Below are positions 2,491 to 37,864 of a stretch of DNA of 64,000 nucleotides, in pieces (the stretch's first letter is position 1; the number at the start of each line of letters is the position of its first letter). Location: the NCBI GenBank assembly GCA_051888935.1, contig JBJFCL010000007.1, positions 9,124-73,123 on the forward strand. Direction: 5' to 3'. The notes below the pieces were generated by a model, which had not been told where the DNA came from, searched no databases, and saw only the letters and a list, made by a program, of their open reading frames with translations. Source of the DNA: Candidatus Caccovivens sp. Lineage in GTDB: Bacteria; Bacillota; Clostridia; Christensenellales; UBA1242. Both the position numbers and the translations under genes were made by a program.

Positions 2491-3024
2491 ATGAATTACG
2501 ACGCAGTGACCAACAAACTCATAATTTTGTTCTGTTTGGATAAAATGGAAATGCCCCTAACAGAAAACTCTATCATTGAAATTTGCTCGGTCAAAAACGC
2601 ATGGATAAACTATATGGACTGCCTCGACCTTTTGTATCAACTCTCAGAAGCAAAACTTATATACAAAACAGTTTGCAAAGAAGGAGAAATGCGATACAAT
2701 CTCACTTTTGAAGGAAGAGATTGTCTGTCATATTTTTACAAGCGCATTCCAGTTGAACTGCGTGACGAAATTTCAGAATATGCCAAAGCAAATCGTCTTT
2801 CAATCAAGCAAAGTCAAGAATACTATGCAAACTACGCCGATGCCGATGATGGCTCTTATCTTGTGACAATGCGAATTTATGAAAATTTGATTTCCAGTCC
2901 TCTTTTTGAAATCAAAATCAAAGCACCGACTCGCCAAGCAGCAGAAGAAGCATGCAAAAAATGGCGTCAAAACGCTCCAAACATATATGAATATATTTTC
3001 GAGAACTTGGTAAACACCGACTAG
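2491..3024 (+). CDS. DUF4364-like protein (winged-helix-like small regulator family)
   Basis: 177 aa. N-terminus NKLIILFCLDKMEMPLTENSIIEICSVKNAWINYMDCLDLLYQLSEAKLIYK matches the remembered DUF4364 pattern. Assignment is from memory only. Confidence 0.5.
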   Translation: MNYDAVTNKLIILFCLDKMEMPLTENSIIEICSVKNAWINYMDCLDLLYQLSEAKLIYKTVCKEGEMRYNLTFEGRDCLSYFYKRIPVELRDEISEYAKANRLSIKQSQEYYANYADADDGSYLVTMRIYENLISSPLFEIKIKAPTRQAAEEACKKWRQNAPNIYEYIFENLVNTD

Positions 3025-6697: not shown

Positions 6698-6910
6698 TTA
6701 TATCATATTTCCAAATGGTTTTATTCGAGTTGCGGAAATTTCTACATTAAAAACAAATTTGTCCCCCTCCCGTCTATAACGCACCACCAAATCATCATCA
6801 AGCAAAAAGAAGTTGCGAGCAATTGTTGTTACTTCTCCTTTCAAAACTTCCGCAATTTGTTCAAGATTTGTAAATTTGTCTCGAATAAGAAGTTCGTTTA
6901 TTCTTTCCAT
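6698..6910 (-). CDS. minE: MinE-like cell-division topological specificity factor, N-terminally short
   Basis: 70 aa, immediately after the minD stop with its own GGAG SD. ERINELLIRDK...DDDLVVRYRREGDKFVFNVEISATRIK resembles the KERLxLILxxDR contact region plus the C-terminal specificity domain of MinE. Confidence 0.55.
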   Translation of the reverse strand: MERINELLIRDKFTNLEQIAEVLKGEVTTIARNFFLLDDDLVVRYRREGDKFVFNVEISATRIKPFGNMI

Positions 6911-6919
6911 AACATCTCC

Positions 6920-7711
6920 TTAGACATGTTTTTTAATATTTCTCTTAAAATATCCCATAATGCCACGATACTTATAAGTGCAATCATATATTTTTTTACT
7001 TCCGTTATGTATGTTTTCAGATAACAGAGTAAACGCTCTTGCACTTTCGCCGTCAGTCATTATTCGTCCAACACTTGACATCTTTGACACATTGTCGTCC
7101 TCAGGAATCACTCCCAAAAGCGGAATGCCCATAGCTTTGACAATGCTTTCAATATTTATCATCTCACCAGAGAGGAGCAAATCTCCTCTCATTCGATTTA
7201 TGACAAGTCCTTTGCTTTCAATGTTATACTCGCTCAAAAGTCCAACCACCTTGTCGGCGTCACGCAATGAAGACAAATGAGGAGTAACAACAATAAGTGC
7301 CTCATTGGCAGGATAAACCGCCCTGTGAAAGCCGTTCTCAACGCCCGCAGGACAGTCAATCAAAATGTAGTCAAAGGAATGGTCGATGATATCAATAACA
7401 TTTTTTATGTGTTCGCCAGTTATTTTGCTGGAAGCATATGTGTGTGAAGATGGCAAAAGATAAAGTGATGGGTAGTTCTGGTCTTGAATGAGTGCTTGCC
7501 TAACGCGACATTTTCCGCTCACAACATCTGTCAAATCAAACACAACTTGCCTTTCCAATCCCATAATGACATCCAAGTTGTTGAGTCCAATATCAACATC
7601 AATCAGCACAACGCGAAAACCTAGTCTTGACAGATATACGCCAAGATTGGCACAGACGGTGGTTTTCCCAACTCCACCCTTTCCACTTGTGACCACAATT
7701 TTACGAGCCAT
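6920..7711 (-). CDS. minD: Septum site-determining ATPase MinD
   Basis: MARKIVVTSGKGGVGKTT deviant Walker A, then DCPAG, with a C-terminal amphipathic basic tail GIMGYFKRNIKK. Start set at ATG 7711, which follows GAGGTG; track start 7759 is an upstream extension. Confidence 0.9.
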   Translation of the reverse strand: MARKIVVTSGKGGVGKTTVCANLGVYLSRLGFRVVLIDVDIGLNNLDVIMGLERQVVFDLTDVVSGKCRVRQALIQDQNYPSLYLLPSSHTYASSKITGEHIKNVIDIIDHSFDYILIDCPAGVENGFHRAVYPANEALIVVTPHLSSLRDADKVVGLLSEYNIESKGLVINRMRGDLLLSGEMINIESIVKAMGIPLLGVIPEDDNVSKMSSVGRIMTDGESARAFTLLSENIHNGSKKIYDCTYKYRGIMGYFKRNIKKHV

Positions 7712-7814
7712 AATTGCACCTCTGCACATATTATAAATTGTAAAAACCTTAGTTCGCAATAAACATAAAGAGCAAATTTCGTGAAAATTGTCGAGTTTTG
7801 CAAAAGATTTTAAC

Positions 7815-7843
7815 TTGACACCTTTTTATACTTGTGATATCAT
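7815..7843 (+). promoter_or_regulatory. Putative sigma-A promoter, LRR module 1
   Basis: TTGACA (7815-7820), 17-nt spacer, TATCAT (7838-7843). Confidence 0.45.
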
Positions 7844-7862
7844 GAAAATTAGGAGAAAAACA

Positions 7863-8150
7863 ATGATTCAACTTTCAATAAAAGAAATAAAGAACCATGG
7901 CGAATATGTTTTGCAAGACAAGAGTGGCAAAAAACAATCCCTCATCTTGGAATTTTACAACATTACGCCTCCTTCGGTTGACGATGTGTTGTTTTTCCAT
8001 GAAAAAATATTAAATCGTTCTTCGGAAAATTTTGTTCAACCTTTTGCCTTTGCATCTATGACGAAGGAGTCACAACAAATAAATGATGAAGATATAGTTG
8101 GTTTACACACCAAAAACGGCAATTTTGTTTTGAAAAGGGTCTATGGTTAA
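7863..8150 (+). CDS. Small partner protein A1 (95 aa), unknown family, paralogue of 11543-11836
   Basis: ATG 7863 follows AGGAG. Roughly two-thirds identical by eye to the 97-aa product of 11543-11836 (shared MIQLxxKEIKxxGEYVLQxK...QSLILEFYxITPP...GLHTxNGxxVLKRxYG). Stop overlaps the next ATG (TAATG at 8148-8152). Confidence 0.65.
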   Translation: MIQLSIKEIKNHGEYVLQDKSGKKQSLILEFYNITPPSVDDVLFFHEKILNRSSENFVQPFAFASMTKESQQINDEDIVGLHTKNGNFVLKRVYG

Positions 8151-9787
8151 TGAAAAACAAGGATTTGGATTTTTTAAAAAAACATTATGGAGAACAATTC
8201 TCTCATCTTTGTAGAGAACTTTTTCCGACAATTTTGGAACAAGAAGGTTTGCTCAGTGAAGTTATTTCAAAAAAATTTGCACCAACGCGTTCTTTGGCAG
8301 AAGATTTAGTTGATCAAGAAGAAAATTTTAAAGCATATATATACAGTCTTGTCGATGTTGAAAAAGTAGACAAAACAACAATTGTAAACAAAAGTCCAGA
8401 AGAACTTATGAAAGAAGCAGGATATATTCTTTATCCAGAGTGCAAGACCGAAAAAGATATCCAAAGTTTTAAAAAATATTACACAAAAAATGAGAAACTT
8501 TGCACTTTTGATGGTGGAAGATTAAATACTTGTCGAGTTTGGTTTGCTGTCAAAGAAAATGTAGACGAAATCAAGCGAGATGATTTCAAAAATCCAAAAA
8601 GACAAGATGAATATGGCACAAGTGTTATCAGCATTCAGTTCACAAAATCAGAAAACAGCACCTTGTCAATAAAAAATCGATATAATCACACTGTAAACAA
8701 CCCAGATTGCACTTTTGGAAACAATTTGGACAATATAATTGAAGGTCTTACGGGTGCTTTTGTGCAAAAATACGGAATCAATTTACAAAACACAATCCAA
8801 GATTTTGAATTGGAAAAATATGTCCTTGCAAATGATGGAAAATTTTATAGATACAATTTTGAATCATATAATATTTATTATTGTGAAAACAATGTTATCG
8901 TTGATGCTGGCGAAGTTAAAACTTTCAACAAAGACAAATTTTTTTTGATTGATAATTACATTGTCGATTTAGAAAATAAAACTATAAAAAGTTATTTTTC
9001 GCATTTGGATAGTTTTGTTAACTCAATTGGAACGATTAAAAACATAAATGTTACTCTTGATAAAGACAAAAACAAAGTTCTCTCCATTGAAACTAAAAAT
9101 GGACAAAATATTGTTGAGATAACCATCAACAAGCACAATGAAATAATTGGATATAGCAATCCAAATGTTACTGAAATTGGACATGATTTCCTCAGTTGCA
9201 ACACCACATTGCAATTCATAAACTTGCCAAATGTCACAAAAATCGATCATTCTTTCCTTTTAAGCAACAGTTTTTTGAGATCGTTAAATCTGCCAAATGT
9301 GACTGAAATAAGTACAGACTTTTTGTTCTATAATGAATGTTTGCAAGAGATAAATATGCCAAATTTAAGAAAAATTGATGACTCTTTTCTTTGTTACAAC
9401 AATTCCCTACAATCAATATATTTTCCTAAACTAGTTGAAATTGGCAATAGTTTCATGAATGGAAACGATTCAGTATTAACCGCCGACCTCCCTAATGTCG
9501 AAAAAATTGGCGGTAAATTTTTATCTTCAAACAGTTGTTTAAAATCGATAAACCTGCCAAACGTAATTGATATTAGTTATAACTTTTTATTAAGCAACAA
9601 TTCTTTGAAGAGTATTGATTTGCCCAATGTAAAACAAATTGGTACCAATTTTATGTACTGCAATAATGCTTTGAAAGAATTTCATGCACCAAATCTTAAA
9701 CAAAAAGATTTCAGCAATTTTTATAGATTAAAAAAAATATTAGATACTTATTCAAACAAAAATTCTTCAAACAAAAGAGAGAAATAG
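8150..9787 (+). CDS. Head-domain/LRR protein 1 (545 aa): unrecognised N-terminal domain plus ~8 BspA-like 22-aa leucine-rich repeats
   Basis: No signal peptide or TM. The N-terminal ~330 aa are shared with the two paralogues. C-terminus repeats LPNVTxIxxxFLxxNxxLxSIx from about 9161 to 9710. Confidence 0.8.
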   Translation: MKNKDLDFLKKHYGEQFSHLCRELFPTILEQEGLLSEVISKKFAPTRSLAEDLVDQEENFKAYIYSLVDVEKVDKTTIVNKSPEELMKEAGYILYPECKTEKDIQSFKKYYTKNEKLCTFDGGRLNTCRVWFAVKENVDEIKRDDFKNPKRQDEYGTSVISIQFTKSENSTLSIKNRYNHTVNNPDCTFGNNLDNIIEGLTGAFVQKYGINLQNTIQDFELEKYVLANDGKFYRYNFESYNIYYCENNVIVDAGEVKTFNKDKFFLIDNYIVDLENKTIKSYFSHLDSFVNSIGTIKNINVTLDKDKNKVLSIETKNGQNIVEITINKHNEIIGYSNPNVTEIGHDFLSCNTTLQFINLPNVTKIDHSFLLSNSFLRSLNLPNVTEISTDFLFYNECLQEINMPNLRKIDDSFLCYNNSLQSIYFPKLVEIGNSFMNGNDSVLTADLPNVEKIGGKFLSSNSCLKSINLPNVIDISYNFLLSNNSLKSIDLPNVKQIGTNFMYCNNALKEFHAPNLKQKDFSNFYRLKKILDTYSNKNSSNKREK

Positions 9788-9806
9788 CGTAATTTTACAA
9801 AAAGTA

Positions 9807-9835
9807 TTGACAGAAAATAATTATTATTGTAATAT
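9807..9835 (+). promoter_or_regulatory. Putative sigma-A promoter, LRR module 2
   Basis: TTGACA (9807-9812), 17-nt spacer, TAATAT (9830-9835). It lies inside the track ORF extension, which argues for the 9879 start. Confidence 0.5.
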
Positions 9836-9878
9836 CACAATTAAATTGAAAATATTTCAAAAAAAGGAGGTCTTGCCA

Positions 9879-11441
9879 ATGAAAAACAAAGATTTAGAGT
9901 TTTTAAAAAAACATTACGGAGAACAATTCTCTCATCTTTGTAGAGAACTTTTTCCGACACTTTTGGAACAAGAAGGCTTGCTCAGTGAAATCATCTCAAA
10001 CAAGTTTGCCCCAACTTTTTCATTGGCAAAAGATTTAAAAGGTCAAGAAGAAAATTTTAAAGCATATATATACAGTCTTGTCGATGTCGAAAAAGGAGAA
10101 AAAGCTCCAATCGTCAACAAAACGCCAGAGGAACTTTTGAGTGAAGCAGGATATATTCTTTATCCAGAATGTAAAACGGAAGAAGATATCCAAAGATTCA
10201 AAAAATATTATGCTCCCGGAGAAGAACTTTGCACATTCAAAGGCGGAAGATTGAAAGATTGCAGAGTTTGGTTTGCTGTCAAAAAAAATGTGGACGAAAT
10301 CAAAAGGGAAAACTTTAAAAATCCAAATAGGCAAGATGAATATGGCACAAGTGTTATCAGCATTCAGTTCACAAAATCAGAAAACAGCACTGTTTCAATC
10401 AAAAATCGTTACAATCACTCTGTCAACAACCCAGACTGCACCTTTGGAAATAATCTGGACAACATAATTGAAGGACTGACAGAAGCTTTTGTGAACACAT
10501 ATGAAATTTCTTTGAAAGAAGCGACCAAACAGAAATATCAATTAAAAAAATATGTTATGGCAGAGGACGGAAAATTTTATAGATATAATTTTGAAAAAGA
10601 TAATATTTATTTCTGTGAAAACAACATTATAATAAACAATGGAAAGGTCGAAAGGTTTAATAAAGACAACAACCTAGTGATTGACAATTTCCTTGTTGAT
10701 TTAAAAAACAAGAGCATAAAAAATCTTTTAAATTATAATGATAGTTTCATTGATACAATTGGAAATATAAAATCAATAAATGTTTCAAAATATAAAAATA
10801 GCAACAAAAAAATCTCTATTGAAACTGACAATAATGATGTCAAACTCACCATCAACAGCCACAACGAGATAATAGCATATATCAACTCCAATTATTTCAA
10901 AATAAATGACAATTTTATGCGATGCAACAAATCGTTAAAAATTCTTGATTTGCGCAACGCCAAGACAATTGGCAACGACTTTTTATATAACAACGATGCG
11001 TTAATCTATGCTGATTTGCGTAATGCAACTATTATTAAAGACAATTTTTTGTGTAAAAATAAGGCTATAACCACCATTGACTTGCGTAGTGCGATGGTTA
11101 TTGGTAAAAACTTTTTGTTTATAAACAATACTGTAAAATCAATAGACTTGAATAAAGCAAGTGTAGTAGGTGACAATTTCTTGTGTAATAACAAATGTTT
11201 AAATTTTATTAACTTACAATCTGCAACCGCAATAGGCAACCGATTTTTGTATAGCAATGCATCTATAAACTCAATAGAGTTGAACAATGTCACAACTATT
11301 GGTAAAGATTTCTTGAAAAAGAATGAAATATTGCAATATTTTTATGCACCTAAGCTCAAAAGTACAAAAAAGCCTTTCAAATTTGAAAATATGATAAACA
11401 AATCTAGACTTAAACATATCTTTCATAAAAAAGAAAAATAG
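9879..11441 (+). CDS. Head-domain/LRR protein 2 (520 aa): same head, ~7 divergent LRRs, no small partner
   Basis: ATG 9879 follows AAGGAGG (9864-9870). MKNKDLEFLKKHYGEQFSHLCRELFPT is nearly identical to the paralogues. LRRs (RNAxTIGxxFLxxNxx) run from about 10886 to 11360. Confidence 0.8.
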   Translation: MKNKDLEFLKKHYGEQFSHLCRELFPTLLEQEGLLSEIISNKFAPTFSLAKDLKGQEENFKAYIYSLVDVEKGEKAPIVNKTPEELLSEAGYILYPECKTEEDIQRFKKYYAPGEELCTFKGGRLKDCRVWFAVKKNVDEIKRENFKNPNRQDEYGTSVISIQFTKSENSTVSIKNRYNHSVNNPDCTFGNNLDNIIEGLTEAFVNTYEISLKEATKQKYQLKKYVMAEDGKFYRYNFEKDNIYFCENNIIINNGKVERFNKDNNLVIDNFLVDLKNKSIKNLLNYNDSFIDTIGNIKSINVSKYKNSNKKISIETDNNDVKLTINSHNEIIAYINSNYFKINDNFMRCNKSLKILDLRNAKTIGNDFLYNNDALIYADLRNATIIKDNFLCKNKAITTIDLRSAMVIGKNFLFINNTVKSIDLNKASVVGDNFLCNNKCLNFINLQSATAIGNRFLYSNASINSIELNNVTTIGKDFLKKNEILQYFYAPKLKSTKKPFKFENMINKSRLKHIFHKKEK

Positions 11442-11467
11442 AAACACTCAATGCTGAGTGTTTTTTA
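11442..11467 (+). terminator. Rho-independent terminator after LRR gene 2
   Basis: AAACACTCA / TGAGTGTTT stem with loop ATGC, followed by a T-run. Confidence 0.7.
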
Positions 11468-11496
11468 TAATTTTTAAGCAAGCGTATTTTTGTAAC

Positions 11497-11525
11497 TTGA
11501 CAAAGAAAAATAATTTTATTAAAAT
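11497..11525 (+). promoter_or_regulatory. Putative sigma-A promoter, LRR module 3
   Basis: TTGACA (11497-11502), 17-nt spacer, TAAAAT (11520-11525). Shares the AACTTGACA context with module 1. Confidence 0.5.
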
Positions 11526-11542
11526 ATTAAAAAGGAGACGTT

Positions 11543-11836
11543 ATGATACAACTTAAAGTGAAAGAAATCAAAACTAATGGCGAATATGTTTTGCAAGAAA
11601 AAGATGGGCAAACTCAATCGCTGATATTGGAATTTTATGATATCACACCCCCTGTTGTTGGTGACACTTTGTTTGTTCATAGAAATTTGTTAAATCGTTC
11701 ATCAAAAAAATTTACTCAACCTTTTGCATTTGAACCATTATCAGTCGAAAATGAGAATCAAAAGGTTGATGATGAAGAAATGATTGGATTGCACACCCAA
11801 AATGGTGATGTTGTTTTAAAAAGGATTTATGGCTAA
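11543..11836 (+). CDS. Small partner protein A2 (97 aa), paralogue of 7863-8150
   Basis: SD AAGGAG. TAATG overlap with the downstream gene at 11834-11838. Confidence 0.65.
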   Translation: MIQLKVKEIKTNGEYVLQEKDGQTQSLILEFYDITPPVVGDTLFVHRNLLNRSSKKFTQPFAFEPLSVENENQKVDDEEMIGLHTQNGDVVLKRIYG

Positions 11837-13956
11837 TGAAAAATAAAGATTTGGAATTTATAAAGAAACATTACGGAGAAGATTTCTCTCATCTATGCAG
11901 AGAACTTTTTCCAACATTATTGGAACAAGAAGGTTTGCTCAGTGAAGTTATTTCAAAAAAATTTGTACCAACGCGTTCTTTGGCGGAAGATTTAAAAAAT
12001 AATTTAAACGAAATAGACGCAATAGACGAATTTAAATCATATATATTCAGCCTTGTAGATGTCGAGAAAGAGGTAAAAACTTCAATCATCAACAAAACCC
12101 CAGAGGAACTTTTGAGCGAAGCAGGATATATTCTTTATCCAGAATGTAAAACGGAAGAAGATATCCAAAGATTCAAAAAATATTATGCTCCCGGAGAAGC
12201 ACTTTGCACTTTTAGAGGTGGAAGATTAAATACTTGTCGAGTTTGGTTTGCTGTCAAAAAAAATGTAGACGAAATCAAACGAGAAGACTTCAAAAATCCA
12301 AAAAGACAAGATGAATATGGCACAAGTGTTATCAGCATTCAATTTACAAAATCAGGAAATATCACTCTTTCAATAAAAAACCGCTACAATCACACTGTAA
12401 ACAATCCTGACTGCACTTTTGGAAACAATTTGGAAAACATCGCATACGGACTAACTGACGCTTTTGAAAAAACATATGACATACATTTACTCGAGAATAA
12501 TAAGCAAGAATTTGAATTAAATCCTTATGTCTTAGCAAACGATGGAAAGTTTTATAGATACAATTTTGAATCTAATGGTATTTATTTTTGTGAAAACAAT
12601 GTTATAATAGAGCATGGCGACGTTAAAACTTTCAACAAAGACACTACTCTTGTGATTGACAATTTTGTTGTTGATTTAAAGAATAAAACTATAAAAAATA
12701 TTCTTAAATATCATGACTCTTTCATAGACTCTATCGGAGAAATTCAATCAATAAATACTTCAATCGACAAAGATGGCAACAAAATTCTTGTAATCAAAAC
12801 TACGAATAAAAATGAAGTTGTAGAAATTACCATAAACAAACACAATCGAATAATTGGTTACAAAAATCCTAATGTGACCACAATTGGAAATGATTTTTTG
12901 CCTTACTGTGAATTACACTCTATCAACCTGCCAAATGTGGCTGAAATAGGTGATGGATTTTTATATAATAATTGGTTTTTGCACTCTATCAATCTTCCGA
13001 AAGTAACTAAAATTGGAAATGGATTTTTGTATAATAATCTCTTTTTGCAATCTATCAGCCTCCCTAATGTAACTGAAATTGGAAATGGATTTTTGTATTC
13101 TAATGAAACTTTGTCCTCCGTCAATCTTCCTAATGTAAATATCATTGGGGATAACTTTTTGTATAATAATGAAGCTTTGTCCTCTATTGACCTCCCCAAT
13201 GTGACCACAATTGGAGATAAATTTTTGTATGATAACAAAAAATTACAATCTATTGACCTCCCTAATGTTACTACAATTGGAAATGAATTTTTGCTTTGTA
13301 ACGAAAATTTGAAATCCATTGATTTCCCTTATGTTACCACAATTGGAAATAAATTTTTGTATTGGAACAAAAAATTACAATCTATTGACCTACCGAATGT
13401 TTACAAAATTGGAAATGACTTTTTAAAAAATAATAAAATATTGGAAGATATCAACTTCCATAATGTGACTGTAATAGGAGATAAGTTTTTGTGTTTTAAC
13501 GAAAATTTGAAATCCATTGATTTCCCTTATGTTACCACAATTGGAAATGATTTTTTACCTTGTAACAGAAATTTGAAATCTATCAATATTCCTAATGTTA
13601 TCACAATTGGAAATAACTTTTTGAATTGTAACATAGATTTGAAATCTATCAATATTCCTAATGTGACTGTAATTGGAAATGATTTTCTATGTTTTAACAA
13701 AAATTTGAAATCTATCAATATTCCTAATGTTACCACAATTGGGGATGGCTTTCTGTGTGCTAACGATAATTTGAAGTCTATCAATATGCATAATGTGACT
13801 GTAATTGGAAATAGTTTTCTGTATTCGAACAACAAATTGAAATCTATCGACATTCCTAATGCAAAGGAAATTGGAAAAGATTTTTTAAAATACAATAAAC
13901 ATTTCAACTTTAATAAAAATAATACAAGTAAAAATGAAGAAACCTTTAATAAATAA
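11836..13956 (+). CDS. Head-domain/LRR protein 3 (706 aa): same head plus ~16 near-perfect 22-aa LRRs
   Basis: Same N-terminal domain as the paralogues. I count sixteen LPNVTTIGNxFLxxNxxLKSIx units. No export signal. Confidence 0.85.
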   Translation: MKNKDLEFIKKHYGEDFSHLCRELFPTLLEQEGLLSEVISKKFVPTRSLAEDLKNNLNEIDAIDEFKSYIFSLVDVEKEVKTSIINKTPEELLSEAGYILYPECKTEEDIQRFKKYYAPGEALCTFRGGRLNTCRVWFAVKKNVDEIKREDFKNPKRQDEYGTSVISIQFTKSGNITLSIKNRYNHTVNNPDCTFGNNLENIAYGLTDAFEKTYDIHLLENNKQEFELNPYVLANDGKFYRYNFESNGIYFCENNVIIEHGDVKTFNKDTTLVIDNFVVDLKNKTIKNILKYHDSFIDSIGEIQSINTSIDKDGNKILVIKTTNKNEVVEITINKHNRIIGYKNPNVTTIGNDFLPYCELHSINLPNVAEIGDGFLYNNWFLHSINLPKVTKIGNGFLYNNLFLQSISLPNVTEIGNGFLYSNETLSSVNLPNVNIIGDNFLYNNEALSSIDLPNVTTIGDKFLYDNKKLQSIDLPNVTTIGNEFLLCNENLKSIDFPYVTTIGNKFLYWNKKLQSIDLPNVYKIGNDFLKNNKILEDINFHNVTVIGDKFLCFNENLKSIDFPYVTTIGNDFLPCNRNLKSINIPNVITIGNNFLNCNIDLKSINIPNVTVIGNDFLCFNKNLKSINIPNVTTIGDGFLCANDNLKSINMHNVTVIGNSFLYSNNKLKSIDIPNAKEIGKDFLKYNKHFNFNKNNTSKNEETFNK
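12868..13905 (+). repeat. In-frame 66-bp tandem periodicity (LRR coding array) with long perfect internal repeats
   Basis: About 16 units. A 52-bp perfect direct repeat occurs at 13299-13350 and 13497-13548 (offset 198 = 3 x 66). TTGAAATCTATCAATATTCCTAATGT recurs three times at 66-bp spacing from about 13570. Confidence 0.85.
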
Positions 13957-13971
13957 AAATTTTATTATTAA

Positions 13972-13998
13972 AAAAACACTCAGAATTGAGTGCTTTTT
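13972..13998. terminator. Bidirectional terminator between convergent LRR gene 3 and the mreB-like gene
   Basis: CACTCA (13977-13982) / TGAGTG (13987-13992) with loop GAAT, flanked by an A-run and a T-run. The stem sequence is related to the 11442 terminator. Confidence 0.65.
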
Positions 13999-15000
13999 TT
14001 ATAATTTTTTAAGAATGCTTTCAAGCAGTTGTCCGTCAGAAAGAAGTTTGCCTGCACCCAAAATGGTAACATTATCAACATCTTCGCTGATTTCAACTGG
14101 ATAATTGAGATTTTTCTTTAAATAATTTTCAAGTCCCTGCATCTTTGCACAACCGCCAACCAACAAAATTTTGTTATTGATGATATCTGCAACTATTTCT
14201 GGCGGAAGACTATTGATTGTCGTGTCAATTGCACGGACAATTTCGCTGTAAAATGGTTCAATCGCTTTTTTCAAATCGCTAGACAAAATAACCACTGTCT
14301 TTGGCGACTTTGTTCGAGCGTCCACGCCAGTTATTTCCATGTTCAAGGTGTCGTTGTCATACAAACTACCAACTTCATTTTTCAAAACTTCTGCCGTTGG
14401 AAGTCCAATGACAAGTTCTTGTGTGTATGCCAAGAAATTGACAATCGAAGCATCAATACTTTTCCCTCCAATTCCGAGAGTCGCACCTTTCAAAATGTTG
14501 GACATATTGATAACTCCAATTTCTGTCCCTGTTCCGCCGATATCCACAACCATATTGACTTTGGAGCTATCAATGTTTCGTCCTTCACCAACACATGAAC
14601 ACAAAACCGATGGAACGAGTTCCACATGTCCAAGATTTGCTCCTTCGCAGACATTCAATATGTTCTCTTTTTCTCTTGCAGTAAGTCCACAAGGCACAAT
14701 GAATAGTGCACTATCTTCATGTGCACGATATCCCACTTTACTCAAAAAGTGTTTAAGTAAAATAACAGAATATTCATAATTTGAATGCTCGCCACTAGCC
14801 ATTGGAGTGAAAATCTCAACATTATCCTTTGTTTTTCCAACCAATTTTTTTGCATCAATTCCCATAGCAATAACTTTGTATCCTTCATCAGTCGGTTCCG
14901 CAGCGATGAGAGTAGGCTCTTTCAAAGCCAGACCTTGACCTTTGACATAAATACAAGTGTATCCGCCACCCATTTCAATGGCATACTTAAATTTTCTCAT
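13999..15000 (-). CDS. mreB: MreB/Mbl-family actin-like protein (divergent)
   Basis: 333 aa. IEMGGGYTCIYV, MVVDIGGTGTEIGV and LVGGCAKMQGL are MreB-like ASKHA motifs. The phosphate-1 motif differs from the canonical DLGTANT. Confidence 0.75.
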   Translation of the reverse strand: MRKFKYAIEMGGGYTCIYVKGQGLALKEPTLIAAEPTDEGYKVIAMGIDAKKLVGKTKDNVEIFTPMASGEHSNYEYSVILLKHFLSKVGYRAHEDSALFIVPCGLTAREKENILNVCEGANLGHVELVPSVLCSCVGEGRNIDSSKVNMVVDIGGTGTEIGVINMSNILKGATLGIGGKSIDASIVNFLAYTQELVIGLPTAEVLKNEVGSLYDNDTLNMEITGVDARTKSPKTVVILSSDLKKAIEPFYSEIVRAIDTTINSLPPEIVADIINNKILLVGGCAKMQGLENYLKKNLNYPVEISEDVDNVTILGAGKLLSDGQLLESILKKL

Positions 15001-15009
15001 TCGCCCCTC

Positions 15010-16215
15010 CTACACTGTGATTATAACGCTCTTTGCGTGTGCTGTCAGACCTTCAAATTGTTCGTAAAAAATGGTTACTCTTTCGCCAGCACTCAATTTG
15101 TAAATAATTTCAAACAAATCATATTTATTTTTTATATTATAGGTTGTTGTGCCAATTTTAAGAGCAGTGATTGCACTATTGGAACTGATTGTGACATCTT
15201 TATGAACAAATTCATTCATGAGATAATATCCTGAATAATCGGAATTGGCATAATATGTGATTTCGTCTGAATAAGAATGCCAAGATTTGTTGAAATAGAA
15301 ATTGTTTTCGTCTCCTGTATTTCTTTGCGAGCACTCAATAAACCAAGAAAGTTCCGCTTGGTCAAACCCGACAAATTTGTCTCTTATAGCACAAGAAAAA
15401 GTGGAATTAGATTGATATTTTTCAACAACATTGTCCAAAACAAACTTGATTGCCTCTGCCGGCATTACATAAGCAAAACCTGCTGAAACATCAGTTAATG
15501 AGCCATACGAAAATCCCAAAAGCGAAGCATTTTTGTCGAACACCGCACCGCCTGTAAATTGAGTGCCGTCCAAATCCAAATCAATGACAAAGCAATTTTC
15601 TTGGATTCTGTCAACAACCAACATACCATCTTGCTCTGTTACATTTGGCACATCATATCCAATATCATAGACCTCACCTGTTCTGATATGTTTGTCTGAA
15701 ACAGGATTTGAAACGCAAATAATTTCATCGCCTTCCACAATGTTTGAAATAGATGCTATGGAGACATAAGGCAACTTGATTTCTCCTTCCCCCTCCGCAG
15801 TGTTTTGACACTTTATTACGGTCAAATCATAATCCTTGTCAGCAAACAAAACTTTCCCATAGAAGATAGTTCCAGAATTGGAATAGATTTTGATGATTGT
15901 GTCGCTGTTTACATTTTCAAAATCGCTGTATGGAGCAATGATATATCCGTCTTTTCGCACATTAACTCCAAGGACTTTTTTTTCTTCATCTTGAAATTCT
16001 GAATTTTGTACTTTAAATTCAATTTCAACAGTGGCATCAGCATACATATCGGCAATTTGTGTGTCTGAGACAAAAGGCCAAAAGCCAATTTTTAGAGCAA
16101 TATTATATGGAGAAATAAAGTAAAAATAGACAACAGCAAAAAGGTAGCACAGAACAACTGTAACCACCGCGAATAAAATATACCAAACAAGTTTTGAATT
16201 GCTTTTATTCTCCAT
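15010..16215 (-). CDS. Membrane-anchored HtrA-like protein (trypsin fold plus PDZ-like C-terminus) with a non-canonical catalytic triad
   Basis: N-terminal TM. DGYIIAPYSDF aligns to GYIVTNxHV with His replaced. DYDLTVIKC retains the Asp. GTQFTGGAVFD aligns to GNSGGP with Ser replaced by Thr. Confidence 0.5.
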   Translation of the reverse strand: MENKSNSKLVWYILFAVVTVVLCYLFAVVYFYFISPYNIALKIGFWPFVSDTQIADMYADATVEIEFKVQNSEFQDEEKKVLGVNVRKDGYIIAPYSDFENVNSDTIIKIYSNSGTIFYGKVLFADKDYDLTVIKCQNTAEGEGEIKLPYVSIASISNIVEGDEIICVSNPVSDKHIRTGEVYDIGYDVPNVTEQDGMLVVDRIQENCFVIDLDLDGTQFTGGAVFDKNASLLGFSYGSLTDVSAGFAYVMPAEAIKFVLDNVVEKYQSNSTFSCAIRDKFVGFDQAELSWFIECSQRNTGDENNFYFNKSWHSYSDEITYYANSDYSGYYLMNEFVHKDVTISSNSAITALKIGTTTYNIKNKYDLFEIIYKLSAGERVTIFYEQFEGLTAHAKSVIITV

Positions 16216-18839: not shown

Positions 18840-21800
18840 ATGAAAAAACTCAAATCAATAAAAAGCAAAATTATCATGTTTATCTTCGCATTGGTGTTGC
18901 CACTCTCAGCAACCTTTGCATACACCCTTCCACAAAATGTGGCAAGAGCAGATGAAGCCTCAACAAATTATTACAATGGTTATATGAAAGAGGTAACAAT
19001 GTCGAACAACAATTTCAATTCTTCAAGTTCGACATATTCTATCAGCACAAATCTCTCTGGTTGGACTGGACAAGTTTCAAACAGCAAGACCACTGCTGGA
19101 ATTATCAACACAGGCAATTCTTTTCAAACTTATATGGCAAACACTTATCGACTTTCAAAAAATCCTCTTGCCAAAGCAACCGACCAAAAAATTTTGATGA
19201 TAAATTCCAGAACTGCTGATTCAAAAGAAAATGCAACTGCAAGACAAGGATACAAGTCAAACACAATAAGTTTGGACGCAAATTCATATTATTCATTTCA
19301 AGTGTCATTCAAAAATGACACAAACTACAATTCATATGATGCGTATGTTGATGCAGGCATTGTGGACGCAGACACAACAATAAGCAAAGACACATTTGCC
19401 AAAAAGGTCGATGACAAGGTTGTAAAATTTGGAAACTATATCAGTTTTTCATACAAAGGCAAAGAGTATTATCTCTTGAAAGAACTCACACCTGCTTCAC
19501 CTCTCTCCGTGGATATGAACGATGTTTCTTTCTTCTATGAAGACGAAGAATATTATGGTTTCACACTTGAAGATGGTAAAGCAGTTTATGTAAACAAAGA
19601 AAATGTTCAAGTTAACACAGAAGCAGACCAAACAAAATATAGCATTTCTTCTGGAACTGAACTTTTCACTTGCAACCTTGAATACAACTCTGTCAATTCA
19701 AATTACAAAGTTTCTGCCGGAACAAAATATTACAAAACTCAAAAAGAATACACCTCCCTCAATGACTATGTTTATGGTTCAATCTATTTGGACGGCTTGA
19801 AAGACAGTGACGGCAATGCAGTTAAAGCAGAATATGTCAAAGTTTCTTCAAAAGAATGGATTACTTTCTACTTCTTTGTGGCAACTGGAAATGAAAGTCA
19901 AAGTGTCAATATGCAATTGTGGCTTGGTGGCATGGGCGAAGGACGCGAAAGCAGTGGCGTTGTGTTCTATGACGATTGTCATGTATATCAATACAGCGAA
20001 AATCAATTCTGGAAGATTTACAGTTCATATATTGGCAAAACCTACACCCAAGAAGTTACTATTGGCTCCGAAACAACCACACAGGTTTACAGTTGTTCAA
20101 GTCTTCTTGATTTGAGAGAAACAAAAACACTTCAAATGCCAGAAGAATACAATTTCGGCTTTGAAGCAGGTTCATACAATGCTGATGGTTCTCCAATCAA
20201 AAACTGGACAAAGACAGGAAGCGGAAATGCCCAAGTTTTCAACAATTTGTCAGCACAAGGATTTAAGAGCGCAACAGGTTATGATTTTGTTGGTTCAACA
20301 CTTTCTGCAACAGCAGAAATTGATGGAGAAACAGTAAATATCACTCCAAACAACTATGTCCTTGGATTTTGGGCAGACAATCAATATGTTAAAGCAACAT
20401 CAAAAAACATCAACATAAATGCAAACGAAATCTTGAAAGTGACCGCTCACTACAAAGTTTCAGAACTTTCAAGTGGAAAAGTTTATATGTTTGTTGAGGA
20501 AAACAACAGCGTTATAAATGGAAAATATGGACTCACAGACAGTCAATACACTTTGACAAAAGAAACAGCAAGCACTGGTGTATCAACAAATGGTTCAAGT
20601 GCATTCAACAACAACTATGGCACCATTGAATTCTATGTAAAAGGTGGTGTGCTTTACAACTCTTCCTTCAACATCAGTCTTGGACTTGGAAAAGCAGACG
20701 AACTCGCAACTGGTGCAGTTGTGTTTGACGATATAACAATCGAAAAAGCATCGTCCGCAGATTATGAAGGTGCAACAAACAAAGTGGCATTTTCAACATA
20801 TAGTGGAAGCACAACAATTACAAACGGCAATTTCAACAATATCACAATAAACAATGATAGCACTGCCCCATTCTCACCTGATGGTTGGACAATCACAAAG
20901 GGAAGCGGAACAACATTTGCAGGCGTTATCAACACAGAGGACAGCGTTTATCAATCATATAGAGCAGAATATGAAAGATTGAGAGATGAAGGAGTTGAGG
21001 CATACAACAACCCATATTTGTGGGCAGGCTCTTACTCAAATCCAAAAAATTGCTATGGCTCGACAGTTGACCCAGACAATATCCTAATGATTTCAAATAT
21101 GACTTCATCTTGGCAAAAGGTTCAATCATCAAACATATCACTCACCGCAAGCGGAACACAGAAAATCAGTTTCAAATACAACACTGCTTCTTCAATCAAA
21201 GTTTGTGTTTACGGAAAAGATGGATTTAAACTTTATGAATCCGCCCCACTCACCTCAAACGGCAGTTGGAGTGACTTCGAAATCTATCTCAAATCAATCG
21301 CAGGAACAAACGAAGTTTATGTGACAATTGAACTTGGAAATGAAGACAATCTTGTTCAAGGCTTTGCATATTTTGACAACTTTGAACTTAAAACTGTTTC
21401 CAGCACAACTTTTGACAGCAAAGCGGAAACAAAAAATGACAGTTTGTATGGAGTTGTTGATATGACAAATTTCTATCTCAACCTCCCAACAAACAACATC
21501 ACAAACGACATTAATTTGGACGCCACCCCAGCATACAAAGGAATTCTTTCAAGCGGAGATAAAGGAACAAACTATGGTGGAGTTGTAAAAAGCGACAAAT
21601 TTGAAAACTCCGAAATTTTCAATATTGAGGGCGAAAGCACAAATGTATTCTTCATCAACAATCAAGTGGCTGGCGGATACATCATACAATCCAATTATGG
21701 ACTTGACCTCTCTGCTGATAATTATTATGTTTTGACATTTAAGATAAAGACCAATTTTGCCACACTTGCAAACGAACTAGACGAAGACGAAAAATCTTAT

Positions 21801-22697
21801 GGTGCGACTGTTGGACTTACAGGTTATGATTATTTGACAGAAATTAAGACAACTGGCGACGAATATCAAACCTACTCAATTTACTTCAAACCAACCGAAA
21901 CAAAAACAGCAAACTTGTATATTGCACTAGTTAGCGGTTCAAACAAAACTGCTGGAAGTATGGTTCTCTATGACCTTGCTTTTGAAGAAACAGATGAAGA
22001 CACATACAATTCTGCTGTTGACACAACAAAAAAAGAAGACTATGACCAAAATTCTGACAATGTTTTTGTTGCAAACGCAGAAGACAGCACAGAAACTGAC
22101 TCTGACCCAGACACTGAAACTGACTCCGACGCAGACACAAATTCAAATGATTTCAGTTGGTTGCTTCTTACTTCAACTCTCATTACTGGTCTTGCCATTG
22201 TAATCGCCATTGTTGGCTGGGCACTTAGAAAAGTAAAAATTAAGAAGATAGAGAGAAAACGCAAAGAAACTTATGACAGAAAGTCAAGTTTAAACATTGA
22301 CCACATCAAACAAAAAGCAAAGAAACAAAGAGATGCAGAAGTGGCAGATGTTCAAAACACAATAGGCAAATTCCAAAAAGAACTTGATTCTTTGGAAGCA
22401 GAACACAAGCAAAAAGTACTCATGCTCCGTGACAAAGACAAAGGTCAAATGTCCAAAGAAACAGACAAAGAATTTAAATTGTTTGCTAAAAAGCGTACTG
22501 TTATTGCAGAAAAGATTGACTCCTTAAATAAACATGTTGAAGAACTCAAATCCCCTGAATATTTGCTTTCTCTTGAAAGAAGAGTTTATGTTGAAGAAGA
22601 AATGAAACGCAGAGAACTTGAAAAAGTTTCAAAAAAAGCAAATAAACAGCAAGAACTTCAAGCAGAAACAAAAAACACAGATGTTAAAAAGAAATAA
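18840..22697 (+). CDS. Large type-I membrane protein: signal peptide, four CBM/galactose-binding-like beta-sandwich modules, acidic spacer, TM, Lys/Glu-rich cytoplasmic tail
   Basis: Signal peptide MKKLKSIKSKIIMFIFALVLPLSATFA. Repeated module openings NFN...GWT and module endings VVFYDDCHVYQYS, VVFDDITIEKAS, FAYFDNFELKTVS, MVLYDLAFEETDE. Spacer DSTETDSDPDTETDSDADTNS, TM WLLLTSTLITGLAIVIAIVGWAL, then a 156-aa charged tail. Confidence 0.75.
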   Translation: MKKLKSIKSKIIMFIFALVLPLSATFAYTLPQNVARADEASTNYYNGYMKEVTMSNNNFNSSSSTYSISTNLSGWTGQVSNSKTTAGIINTGNSFQTYMANTYRLSKNPLAKATDQKILMINSRTADSKENATARQGYKSNTISLDANSYYSFQVSFKNDTNYNSYDAYVDAGIVDADTTISKDTFAKKVDDKVVKFGNYISFSYKGKEYYLLKELTPASPLSVDMNDVSFFYEDEEYYGFTLEDGKAVYVNKENVQVNTEADQTKYSISSGTELFTCNLEYNSVNSNYKVSAGTKYYKTQKEYTSLNDYVYGSIYLDGLKDSDGNAVKAEYVKVSSKEWITFYFFVATGNESQSVNMQLWLGGMGEGRESSGVVFYDDCHVYQYSENQFWKIYSSYIGKTYTQEVTIGSETTTQVYSCSSLLDLRETKTLQMPEEYNFGFEAGSYNADGSPIKNWTKTGSGNAQVFNNLSAQGFKSATGYDFVGSTLSATAEIDGETVNITPNNYVLGFWADNQYVKATSKNININANEILKVTAHYKVSELSSGKVYMFVEENNSVINGKYGLTDSQYTLTKETASTGVSTNGSSAFNNNYGTIEFYVKGGVLYNSSFNISLGLGKADELATGAVVFDDITIEKASSADYEGATNKVAFSTYSGSTTITNGNFNNITINNDSTAPFSPDGWTITKGSGTTFAGVINTEDSVYQSYRAEYERLRDEGVEAYNNPYLWAGSYSNPKNCYGSTVDPDNILMISNMTSSWQKVQSSNISLTASGTQKISFKYNTASSIKVCVYGKDGFKLYESAPLTSNGSWSDFEIYLKSIAGTNEVYVTIELGNEDNLVQGFAYFDNFELKTVSSTTFDSKAETKNDSLYGVVDMTNFYLNLPTNNITNDINLDATPAYKGILSSGDKGTNYGGVVKSDKFENSEIFNIEGESTNVFFINNQVAGGYIIQSNYGLDLSADNYYVLTFKIKTNFATLANELDEDEKSYGATVGLTGYDYLTEIKTTGDEYQTYSIYFKPTETKTANLYIALVSGSNKTAGSMVLYDLAFEETDEDTYNSAVDTTKKEDYDQNSDNVFVANAEDSTETDSDPDTETDSDADTNSNDFSWLLLTSTLITGLAIVIAIVGWALRKVKIKKIERKRKETYDRKSSLNIDHIKQKAKKQRDAEVADVQNTIGKFQKELDSLEAEHKQKVLMLRDKDKGQMSKETDKEFKLFAKKRTVIAEKIDSLNKHVEELKSPEYLLSLERRVYVEEEMKRRELEKVSKKANKQQELQAETKNTDVKKK

Positions 22698-32890: not shown

Positions 32891-35800
32891 CTAACTCCAA
32901 TAGAAAACTTTTAAATTATCTCTGCCATTGACTGTAATCCACAAACTGTCTTTTGTTTTCTCTAATATTGTTGTGGTAGTTGAACTATCACTTTCTCTAT
33001 AAAAACAATCTTTTATTGTTGCATTATTTGCGATAACATTAGTGGTATCTGTATTAGTTGTATCTGTATTTGTGATATCGTTCAATGTTCCAATCACAAA
33101 ACATTGGTCAATGGTGCAACCACTTCCACCACCAACAAGTCCAGCAACTCCATTGCAACCTGTGCCTGTCACATCTGCTTTACTTGAAGAAGCATAAAAT
33201 GAACAGTCTTCTGCATAACCAACAAGACCAGCGAAATATTGACGCGCAGCAAATGTATTTGAAACATTTGCGACCCCTACAAGTTCCGGAGTAGAGTCGG
33301 AAGATTTATGATAATAGTATATTTTTCCAGGATAAGTCAATTTATTATCCACTTCACAACCATAAACAAATTCACCATACACATCATAAAAAGCAAGATC
33401 TCCTGTGGCTAAATTTGAATTATAGTTGTTAACTCTCTCAAAAGTTGTGTTAATTGCCTTTCCAACCAAAGCCCCAGCATAAGCATAACCAGTAAAATCA
33501 CTATTTTGAATTGTCAAGTTCTTTATCGTTGCACCATTTGTACAGCCAAACAATCCAATGTTTGAGAGTTCGTTTTCTCCAACAAATTTCAAATTGGAAA
33601 TTGTGTAATTTCCTCCGTCATACACTCCTTTGAATGGAGTTGCACTTGTGCCGATTGGATTGAAAGAAGTGATTGAACTCATATCAATGTTTTCAGTTTG
33701 CACAAACATAACATTTTCAAAAGTATTGCCAGCCTGCACTTTTTGACTTAGAAGCACAAGATCGTCGGCGGTTGAAATTTTATACACACCTTTTGCATCA
33801 GGGCTTGAAGTTGTTGAATAATAAGAAGTAAAGTCATCTATGTTTGATGTTGTGCTGTATTGTTGATATTTTGCCACAATTGAAAGTGAAGTTAGCGAAT
33901 CTGTATTTTGATTCACATTTGTATTTGGATTCACAAGGAAATTATAGGTTGTGTTTAATGACAAAAGTTGATAAGTATTTTTTCCATCGGTAGAAACACT
34001 ATAAAATCCCACAAAGCGTCGATTATGATATGTTTCCGGCACTTCAATTGAAATTGGAGTGAAATATTTTATTTCACGATTTTCTATCGTATCATTTATT
34101 ACACCTGTGCCATCGTTAATTGTGATTTTGGGTTTCACAGTTGAACCTCTAACACCAATCGACAAATTATATTTATTTAAATCGAAATAAGCCGAAATGG
34201 TCAATTCATGGTCTGTCCACTTGCTTGGATCATTTGAGTAATACTGCGAAACAAATTTATCTACAATACTTTGCATGGATTCTGAATATTCTTTATTATA
34301 ATTTTCTGTTACTTCCTCGTTTGATTTTGTGTCTTTGATTGTAAACTTTCCAATGGAATAGCCAGTTTTTGCAGTGCGCAATAATTCCAATGTGTCTTCA
34401 ACTGTTAATGGGGTTGGGTTTAGCGTTATTTTTTTCGAATCTAATTTTGCCGTTCCGCCATTTGTAGATTCAGTGTAAACATCAGAATTATAAGCATTTG
34501 CATAAGTCTTCAAATAGACTTTATATTCAATTGCTGTTCGAGTGACAATAATCGTGATTGTATTGGCGGTTATGTCCGACATTTGTTTAGTCCCTGTTCC
34601 AATAAACTCATCGGCAGAAATTGTAATACTTCGATTTTGTCCAGTCGGTTCTATATTTTCTTTGAAATTATCTTTCCCATTTACCTTAAAAGAATACTTA
34701 TATCCAAATTCCATAAAAGAATTATCATTTACATCATTTACATTTGAGTTATTCAAACTTATAGAGGTTGCATCTTCACGATTTGGCCAATTAACTTCTC
34801 CTTCTGTTTGCAATAATGTATTTTCACCATCTGTGAAAGTAATAGTGTATGACACTTTATTATATTGAACAATTATTTTGTCTTCTAATTTGAAAACAAA
34901 ACTTGCCGTAACCGTCCCATAAGTATTACTTGAACTAAAAATGCTTGTTTCCTGTGTACCTTTTTTAGTAGAAATATTTGTCACATAAAAACCAATATTT
35001 GGTTTTATTGAAATTGTAACAGTCTCCTGATAAGCAAATTTAGTCGTAATATTTCCATCCGTATCATAAAATGAACAATTTGAACAAATTACACTTGGAT
35101 CGCTCGAATAGTCATATTCATTATTTCTCCCACCAAAATGGGAAACACCGATTGGATTTTTTATTCCAGTGAATTTAAACACAAGAGTTGGCCTTAATAC
35201 TATTTCGGTTCCATAATCATATAAAGAGAAAGTTTTAAAGTTTGTCTTGGTTTGACTCACAAGCGTTACATTATTTACAAACTTTGAGCCATCTGCAAAT
35301 GTAGTTTGTAAATAAGCTCCATCAGTTTGAAAATAATTATCTTTTATATTATATTGTAAAACATAGGAACTTCTTATTGTTGCCAAAGTATAATCAGCAC
35401 CATTAAGAACTTGAATATAATCAGTGTTGAGCACTTTTGAAGAATATACATTTTTTGAGTATTCATATACTTGATATGTTTCAAATGTTCCAAAATCAGA
35501 AATGTCATAATAATACTCATAATTAGAAGTTGTATTTTTTCTATAATCCACACCAATTCTCATAGACAAAACAGCGTTGTATGGAACCCATGAATAATGG
35601 GCAGTTTTATAACCTTTCCCTATCCACTGATTTTCAGAAAAATAAGAAAATGCAACAGTTGAACAAAGCCAATCCTTATAGTAAGAATATCCCGCAAAAC
35701 TAGGATGCTCATATTCACTATTTATAAAAGAATAATCCAAACAATTTGTATAATCATCATTCATGTATCCTTCATACCAAACTCGACTTGAAGAAGTGAT

Positions 35801-37756: not shown

Positions 37757-37864
37757 ATGTATAGTATAAACAAAATTCCACAAAAATCAAAATGATTTGA
37801 CAATTTTTGAGAAAAAATATTTTTATTATAAAATATTTTAATATTCGTAAAATATGTTGAAAAA

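Follow-up and report, generated by a model that had tools for sequence, protein, structure and literature searches.

The DNA analyzed here, referred to as the window, is a contiguous stretch of 64,000 nucleotides from the contig JBJFCL010000007.1 of Candidatus (Ca.) Caccovivens sp., a member of the Clostridia. At the junction between mreB and minDE, which is otherwise conserved, this stretch harbors an insertion of 6.2 kb that carries an array of three tandem, paralogous genes. Each of these genes encodes an N-terminal domain of 335 residues, referred to as the head, which is linked to a C-terminal tail of leucine-rich repeats (LRRs). The repeats are of an already known type (LRR_5), while the head and a small partner protein encoded next to it are new; the head, for which the libraries searched gave no relative by either sequence or structure, would add a new domain family. 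We tentatively favor, with somewhat less than even confidence, a model where the head and its partner form a cytoplasmic module, extended by a diversifying LRR arm that would serve in recognition; this module would be restricted to certain lineages of uncultured gut Firmicutes.

Organization of the locus

The three large open reading frames (ORFs) listed in an earlier note on this DNA, which was made from the sequence alone, were all recovered on the plus strand (8150-9787, 9879-11441 and 11836-13956). Two paralogous small ORFs (7863-8150 and 11543-11836) had been overlooked in that first reading, and they revise the anatomy of the locus, i.e., the core unit is a small protein together with a head. 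The features of the segment are the following:

7760-13998: inserted 6.2-kb segment between minD (6920-7759, minus strand) and mreB (13999-15000, minus strand)
7815-7843, plus strand: promoter-like TTGACA-17-TATCAT (TG-extended) of the small partner 1/gene 1 unit; 11 of 12 matches, the top-scoring site of the region
7863-8150, plus strand: small partner 1 (95 residues, ending in LKRVYG); AGGAG 5' of the ATG, stop codon overlapping the ATG of gene 1
8150-9787, plus strand: head-LRR paralogue 1 (545 residues); head at 8150-9154, eight 22-residue LRR units at residues 337-512
9807-9835, plus strand: promoter-like TTGACA-17-TAATAT of gene 2; 10 of 12 matches
9879-11441, plus strand: head-LRR paralogue 2 (520 residues); head at 9879-10871, seven degenerate LRR units, without a small partner of its own
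11440-11465, plus strand: terminator-like hairpin 3' of gene 2, which shares ~70% similarity with the region of the gene 3 hairpin
11497-11525, plus strand: promoter-like TTGACA-17-TAAAAT of the small partner 2/gene 3 unit; 11 of 12 matches
11543-11836, plus strand: small partner 2 (97 residues, ending in LKRIYG); stop codon overlapping the ATG of gene 3
11836-13956, plus strand: head-LRR paralogue 3 (706 residues); head at 11836-12858, sixteen LRR units, LRR_5 match with E 4.6e-42
12913-13902, plus strand: 66-nt DNA tandem repeat in the LRR array of gene 3; 65-82% identity, 13 registers at 66-nt spacing
13977-13992, plus strand: terminator-like hairpin after gene 3

The promoters of the form TTGACA-17-TAxxAT that the earlier note had assigned to each module (starting at 7815, 9807 and 11497) are among the best promoter-like matches of the region. 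From these three sites and the small ORFs, three transcription units are deduced, i.e., small partner-head/LRR, head/LRR and small partner-head/LRR. A scan of the region against Rfam gave no match at E≤0.1.

Between the ATG of gene 1 or gene 3 and the in-frame stop codon that precedes it there is no other start codon, which makes an N-terminal extension impossible, and the ATG of gene 2 at 9879 is preceded by AAGGAGG. In the public annotation, paralogue 1 (P0001, 540 residues) starts at 8165, i.e., five codons 3' of the ATG at 8150, and thereby does not overlap with the small ORF. The start at 8150 is supported by the consensus N-terminus of the family, M-x-N-x-D-L-K-x-L-K-K-H-Y-G-E.

The insertion is apparent from a comparison with 42 loci of related species: in none of them is a head or small gene found at a distance of up to 10 kb from mreB, and in 36 of them mreB is directly followed by minD-minE. 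No remnants of the array were found in the gaps between mreB and minD of these relatives. The GC content of the array is 0.28-0.34, as compared to 0.39-0.40 for minD and mreB; no insertion sequence element, integrase or target-site duplication was found at the borders. The three window paralogues are mutually closest relatives, with 74-75% identity as compared to at most 63% for the other clusters listed, which indicates local duplication. In the relatives, a trypsin-like protease gene, mreB, minD, minE and degV follow each other in a contiguous, conserved order; in the window this block (6698-7759 and 13999-16215, both on the minus strand) is split by the array, and mreB and minDE may thereby have lost any co-transcription.

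The head domain

The head is composed of the first 335 residues of each large protein. Every conserved block quoted in the earlier note was present in the three-way alignment of the window paralogues, the heads of which are 74-75% identical, and the ratio of nonsynonymous to synonymous substitution rates (dN/dS) of 0.14-0.23 indicates purifying selection. Across 148 representatives, which are 45-59% identical to gene 1, 48 head positions are conserved to at least 95%. Among these are cysteines (C21, C98, C118 and C245) and arginines (R22, R124, R143, R151 and R177) as well as E15, E115, D153, Y155, S158, S161, Q163, K175, N176, Y178, N179, D186, T188 and N248. This pattern suggests a site of ligand binding or catalysis, perhaps with a metal in a structural role. 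An AlphaFold2 model of the head, obtained with 67 sequences, is confident (predicted local distance difference test score, pLDDT, 84.3) and, with a predicted template-modeling score (pTM) of 0.56, composed of several parts, i.e., helices (residues 1-67), an alpha/beta core (83-210) and a domain rich in beta-hairpins (224-335). The core is highly conserved, with many invariant Arg, Asp, Tyr, Ser, Lys and Asn residues, and the beta-rich part forms a linker domain; four Cys of the head are invariant as well.

The statement of the earlier note that the head could not be placed in any known family is borne out by each of the libraries searched. No match was obtained in Pfam, NCBIfam, PADLOC or PHROGs, and a Pfam scan of 67 family members one by one did not reveal any consistent weak match to the head. 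A phmmer search of the Protein Data Bank (PDB) and two profile searches (with the whole head and with the core, residues 83-215) were likewise negative; over all these searches the best E was 0.4-1, and the candidates at this level, eL42, DUF1788 and S3a, were dismissed as noise. With the head model, Foldseek gave a best E of 0.18 in the PDB and 0.013 in BFVD, with template-modeling (TM) scores of at most 0.25 throughout.

Candidate active sites were considered by eye and rejected. For a papain-like Cys-His pair, the conservation of H180 is below 95%, and for an R-S-E ADP-ribosyltransferase a conserved ExE is missing. PD-(D/E)xK, GIY-YIG, HEPN, deaminase and E2 motifs are unsuited in spacing or secondary structure.

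The LRR tail

The repeat unit of the tail, L-P-N-V-T-x-I-G-x-x-F-L-x-x-N-x-x-L-K-S-I-x, is of the TpLRR/BspA pattern and spans 22 residues. The counts of 8, 7 and 16 repeats in the earlier note, all with the exact 22-residue spacing, were reproduced, the last of these as 15 scored units and a first degenerate unit. Pfam LRR_5 (PF13306, gathering cutoff 27.7 bits) is matched above this cutoff by gene 1 (39 bits) and gene 3 (143.3 bits). Gene 2 gave no LRR_5 match in the Pfam scan; its tail is homologous to that of gene 3 (BLASTP 6e-35) and has the same 22-residue register. LRR_5 was matched in 57 of the 67 family members, and it is the only Pfam family found in these and in the three window proteins, i.e., there is no C-terminal Ig-like (Big) domain or C-terminal domain of type IX secretion in this set. 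The window proteins end in short Lys-rich tails.

The tails are 34-45% identical among the window paralogues, far below the value for the heads, and the corresponding ranges in six other arrays are 36-69% for the tail and 54-83% for the head. The combination of a conserved head and a fast-diverging LRR, to which the earlier note had drawn attention, is thus real and general. It is seen even among single-copy orthologues, where 36 clusters of exactly 554 residues from an Onthousia-like lineage align without gaps and the rate of divergence is 2.3-3.8 times higher for the tail than for the head. Within the 22-residue unit, the scaffold positions have an entropy below 2 bits, while that of the x positions is 2.6-3.8 bits.

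Among the window paralogues, the synonymous divergence (dS) is 0.65-0.85 for the heads, whereas the LRRs have an apparent dS above 2, a high value that is attributed to saturation or mis-registration of the repeats. The difference fits repeat shuffling or mis-registration, possibly combined with gene conversion of the head. Gross dN/dS above 1 was not seen in the LRRs of these paralogues, for which dS is saturated or inflated by mis-registration.

The small partner protein

The two small partners of the window are paralogues with 64% identity. Both carry a Shine-Dalgarno sequence of their own and overlap the respective large gene in the arrangement TAATG, in which the stop codon of the partner shares nucleotides with the ATG of gene 1 or gene 3. 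A profile built from 28 partners of related loci identified at least 109 clusters of 88-146 residues, with two outliers of 72 and 85 residues; all 109 clusters are devoid of Pfam domains. In the alignment of the 28 sequences, the only invariant residues are R, Y and G of the C-terminal motif R-x-Y-G-stop, while in an alignment of 54 sequences only Y and G are invariant and the Arg is conserved to at least 90%.

The AlphaFold2 model of small partner 2 (pLDDT 90.4, pTM 0.80) is all-beta. The top Foldseek matches are the oligonucleotide/oligosaccharide-binding (OB) domains of IF1, PAN/Mpa and RsgA, with probabilities of 0.97-1.0, weak E values of 0.08-0.3 and TM scores of 0.3-0.5, and these alignments span only ~45-55 of the 97 residues. 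The model thus suggests, but does not prove, that the partner is an OB-like beta-barrel. A ubiquitin-like modifier, brought to mind by the terminal Gly, was considered and rejected; the all-beta model has no helix and its last strand extends to residue 95 of 97. No E1, E2 or deubiquitinase families were found in the neighborhoods examined.

In other genomes the partner adjoins 28 of 46 complete arrays, typically with one copy per array. It is located upstream, with the overlap of stop and start codons, in loci of the Clostridia type and downstream in loci of the Bacilli type. A homologue composed of a head only (P0028, 350 residues) retains the partner upstream. The LRR is therefore dispensable in at least one homologue, which defines partner and head as the core and the LRR as an appendage. 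In another locus (L201, 3354-4948) the head gene is broken into fragments of 123 and 270 residues and the partner is intact.

Export signals and genomic context

Hydropathy and motif scans upheld the claim of the earlier note that the three proteins are devoid of a signal peptide, transmembrane (TM) helix, lipobox and sortase signal. No hydrophobic N-terminus, TM segment (maximum Kyte-Doolittle hydropathy over 19 residues, KD19, of 1.1), lipobox or LPxTG was detected in the window proteins, and the same scans of 267 family members revealed no signal, TM-grade segment, lipobox or LPxTG. Because export and anchor signals are missing across the family, an intracellular location is favored, and the sequences suggest that the module is cytoplasmic.

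The gene neighborhoods were surveyed by means of 115 flanking proteins from ~50 loci. The earlier note had proposed a check for enrichment in defense islands; what was found instead is a set of housekeeping proteins, including SecA, LepA, ribosomal protein S2, TGT, aminoacyl-tRNA synthetases and PcrA. The PADLOC cross-matches among these neighbors are generic only, i.e., GajB models on PcrA-like (UvrD) helicases and PDC-S12 on a SEC-C motif. The array's own five proteins, three large and two small, gave no family in PADLOC-DB v2 at E≤1. No copies of the genes were found in 50,697 phage records, 72,556 plasmids or IMG/VR. Among the three proteins and 67 family members there was no match to a P-loop NTPase (NB-ARC, NACHT or STAND) in Pfam or PADLOC, and no Pfam match to the NEL domain, the conserved domain here being N-terminal, or to WXG100 or LXG, the small-partner model being all-beta. 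Recurrent secretion machinery, i.e., a type VII secretion system (T7SS), ABC/C39 transporter or holin, was not found among the 115 neighbors.

Distribution of the family

At 90% identity the head family comprises 2665 clusters; at 50% identity there are 1291 representatives, of which 780 are found at E≤1e-30. In all 150 representatives listed, the start of the head is among residues 1-20. The database names of these proteins are just "leucine-rich repeat protein" or "hypothetical", and a literature search identified no paper on the head-LRR family. All genomic matches are to uncultured gut metagenome-assembled genomes (MAGs), from human, mouse, rabbit, ruminant and chicken samples, with the source labels Bacilli, "Tenericutes", "Mycoplasma sp. 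CAG:611", Onthousia/Onthoplasma and Clostridia/"Christensenella sp.". The copy number ranges from one in some lineages to seven in a locus of 13 kb, and three overlapping loci were found on one 40-kb contig.

In the Onthousia-like lineage a single pair of a head/LRR gene and a partner gene is located between pcrA and ligA on a contig of 1.09 Mb. The head/LRR gene is single-copy with a fixed length of 554 residues, and the identical sequence is found on 13-28 contigs. In Firmicutes, pcrA and ligA are usually adjacent. In the Onthousia-like contigs the interval holds, in addition to the pair, an AAA_14/DUF4143 ATPase gene and two NTP_transferase genes, which suggests that a larger block was inserted. 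The AAA_14/DUF4143 ATPase genes are found directly downstream of the pair (L197, L198 and L199; ~12118-13452 and 20020-21261).

Comparison with known systems

Apart from the type of LRR, the family lacks the features that define BspA-like surface proteins, internalins, NLR/STAND proteins, NEL effectors and known defense systems. With the BspA/TpLRR proteins (LRR_5, PF13306), e.g., BspA of Tannerella forsythia and LrrA of Treponema, the window proteins share the 22-residue repeat L-x-x-I-x-L-P-x-V-x-x-I-G-x-x-F-L-x-x-N-x-x. In contrast to these surface proteins, they have no signal peptide, Ig-like or sorting domain, or anchor, and their LRR follows a 335-residue domain that BspA proteins lack. 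The expansions in Ca. Mycoplasma (M.) girerdii (26 genes) and Trichomonas vaginalis (>900 genes) are likewise multi-copy, length-variable LRR_5 families with many signal-less members in reduced or host-dependent organisms (PMC4206474). However, a C-terminal TM segment is found in 23 of the 26 M. girerdii proteins and in none of the 267 members of the head family, which also differs in having one common N-terminal head and a small partner gene.

The effectors IpaH, SspH and SlrP also combine a variable LRR recognition domain with a conserved domain that contains an essential Cys, a likeness that is an analogy only; here the domain order is reversed and there is no NEL domain, and those effectors are delivered by a type III secretion system in Gram-negative bacteria. 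NLR/STAND proteins (nucleotide-binding LRR receptors in plant NLR clusters, bacterial Avs and bNACHT) likewise have an effector-like N-terminus, a C-terminal repeat sensor, tandem clusters and fast evolution of the sensor. The window family differs in that it has no central NTPase (NB-ARC, NACHT or P-loop) and no defense-island context, and has the small OB-like partner instead. The Listeria internalins are, similarly, a Firmicutes LRR family with many paralogues and a varying number of repeats, but their signal peptide, N-cap, Ig-like inter-repeat region and LPXTG or GW anchors are all absent here.

Functional interpretation

The favored model, i.e., a cytoplasmic head-partner module with an LRR arm, builds on the observed anatomy, conservation pattern, absence of export signals, linkage to the partner and insertion. 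The core would be composed of the 335-residue head and the co-translated, OB-like partner of ~95 residues. Judging from its conserved residues, the head probably either is an enzyme that binds metal or binds an anionic ligand such as a nucleotide or nucleic acid, and the partner would either regulate the head or present something to it. The BspA/TpLRR-type solenoid at the C-terminus of the head would act as a protein-recognition arm, which would alter its number of repeats through duplication of the 66-nt unit, while the family would spread by tandem duplication and reach new chromosomal sites. Since the head is shared and the LRR arms have diverged, the paralogues would bring one and the same head activity to different ligands inside the cell.

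Several observations weigh against this model. LRRs of the BspA type are classically extracellular. Cysteine exclusion is uninformative as a test of location in this genome; the Cys content of the window proteins (1.6-2.0%) equals the cytoplasmic background, and an exported-looking ORF of 1630 residues in the same window has 1.84% Cys. The head is without a detectable relative of known function, and its designation as an enzyme derives from the conservation pattern only. Furthermore, 18 of the 46 complete arrays have no adjacent partner, i.e., the pairing is not obligatory in cis, and one partner gene (L204/L205, 5001-5285) is found without an adjacent head, in L204 beside a type IV pilin-like (N_methyl) protein. 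Finally, BspA-like expansions in eukaryotes and mycoplasmas often have no signal peptide and are nonetheless regarded as surface-exposed; of the 26 proteins of Ca. M. girerdii, 5 have a signal peptide and 23 a C-terminal TM segment (PMC4206474).

The last point is also part of the case for a different location, where the proteins would be surface-bound or secreted adhesins that bind host, mucus or microbes after unconventional export, the head being an export or anchor module and the small protein a chaperone or adaptor; tandem expansion would then supply diversity in binding or antigenicity. Such adhesins, which the earlier note had named as its alternative and which we regard as possible but rather unlikely, would account for the repeat type, for the Lys-rich C-terminal tails and for the confinement of the family to host-associated gut lineages, where the member on the 1.09-Mb contig hints at a small genome. 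They would also fit the arrays of up to seven copies per 13 kb and the several loci on one 40-kb contig. In four related rabbit-gut Clostridia loci (L001, L003, L008 and L012), secA is found directly upstream of the small-partner/head pair, an adjacency that may be due to chance within one clade, yet is relevant to export. However, not one of the 267 members has a signal, TM segment, lipobox or LPxTG, the 115 neighbors include no recurrent T7SS, ABC/C39 or holin genes, and no WXG100 or LXG match was obtained. The invariant Cys, Arg and Asp residues of the head resemble an active or ligand site more than an anchor, and the single-copy, fixed-length orthologues of one lineage fit antigenic variation poorly.

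The intracellular sensor or defense system proposed in the earlier note is upheld in part: the head is undescribed and an intracellular location is favored by the signal-less family, but nothing specific to defense was found. In its dedicated form this proposal describes an anti-phage sensor-effector akin to abortive infection, in which the LRR would sense a protein of the phage, the head would act as effector and the partner would keep the head inactive, with the arrays as a bacterial counterpart of plant NLR clusters without the NTPase. We consider it quite unlikely. An effector-like conserved head joined to a diversifying LRR, the apparently cytoplasmic location, the small, translationally coupled partner, which recalls antitoxin-toxin layouts, and the recent insertion of the low-GC array at a position that varies are all features that such a system could have. 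On the other hand, neither head, LRR nor partner is matched in PADLOC, there is no STAND/NACHT NTPase, the neighbors are housekeeping genes with generic UvrD or SEC-C cross-matches, and phages, plasmids and IMG/VR hold no copies. With one copy for up to four heads, and none in 18 of 46 complete arrays, the partner does not resemble a stoichiometric antidote, and in the Onthousia-like lineage the gene is stable and single-copy, with the same sequence on 13-28 contigs. A related and more elaborate idea, which we hold to be very unlikely, is that of intracellular receptor arrays where LRR sensors wired to a new effector enzyme would be gated by the OB-like partner via R-x-Y-G and would recognize phage or other foreign proteins, i.e., an NLR analogue without a nucleotide switch.

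A colicin-like bacteriocin or toxin, with a cytotoxic head, an LRR that binds receptors and sets the target range, a small immunity protein and release by lysis, appears highly improbable. Release by lysis needs no signal peptide, and a tightly linked small partner, whether upstream or downstream, would suit an immunity function, also with one partner per array, since a conserved head would let one partner neutralize several paralogues. Yet no lysis or release gene was found nearby in the neighborhoods examined, there is no match to any toxin family, and there is no toxin polymorphism, the combination of a conserved toxin and a variable receptor binder being unlike known polymorphic toxins. 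In addition, 18 of 46 complete arrays are without an adjacent immunity candidate; a partner is kept beside a pseudogenized head (L201), but heads without a partner are common.

Other features of the window

The window is a core chromosomal stretch in which gyrAB, clpC, tex, rnj, thrS and secD are present, and a GyrB identity of ~90% places it in a Ca. Caccovivens-like lineage of the Clostridia. Two giant ORFs have a hydrophobic N-terminus and no Pfam match at E≤1e-5, one at 18840-22697 (plus strand, 1285 residues), which is Cys-poor (0.39%), and one at 32891-37783 (minus strand, 1630 residues), with the 1.84% Cys given above. Each of the two probably encodes a large protein that is exported or located at the surface, with no family assigned by Pfam. 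A DUF4364 protein (2491-3024, plus strand, E 1.4e-37) is encoded upstream of an ABC transporter pair and is unconnected with the LRR array.

Biological significance

More than 1000 clusters at 50% identity in uncultured gut Clostridia and Bacilli carry generic names only. Some MAGs have a dozen or more tandem copies, and the family is therefore probably central to the lifestyle of these organisms. The pairing with a small protein of invariant C-terminus offers a concrete, testable handle, and the head-LRR family could show what signal-less LRRs of the BspA type do inside or outside the Gram-positive cell.

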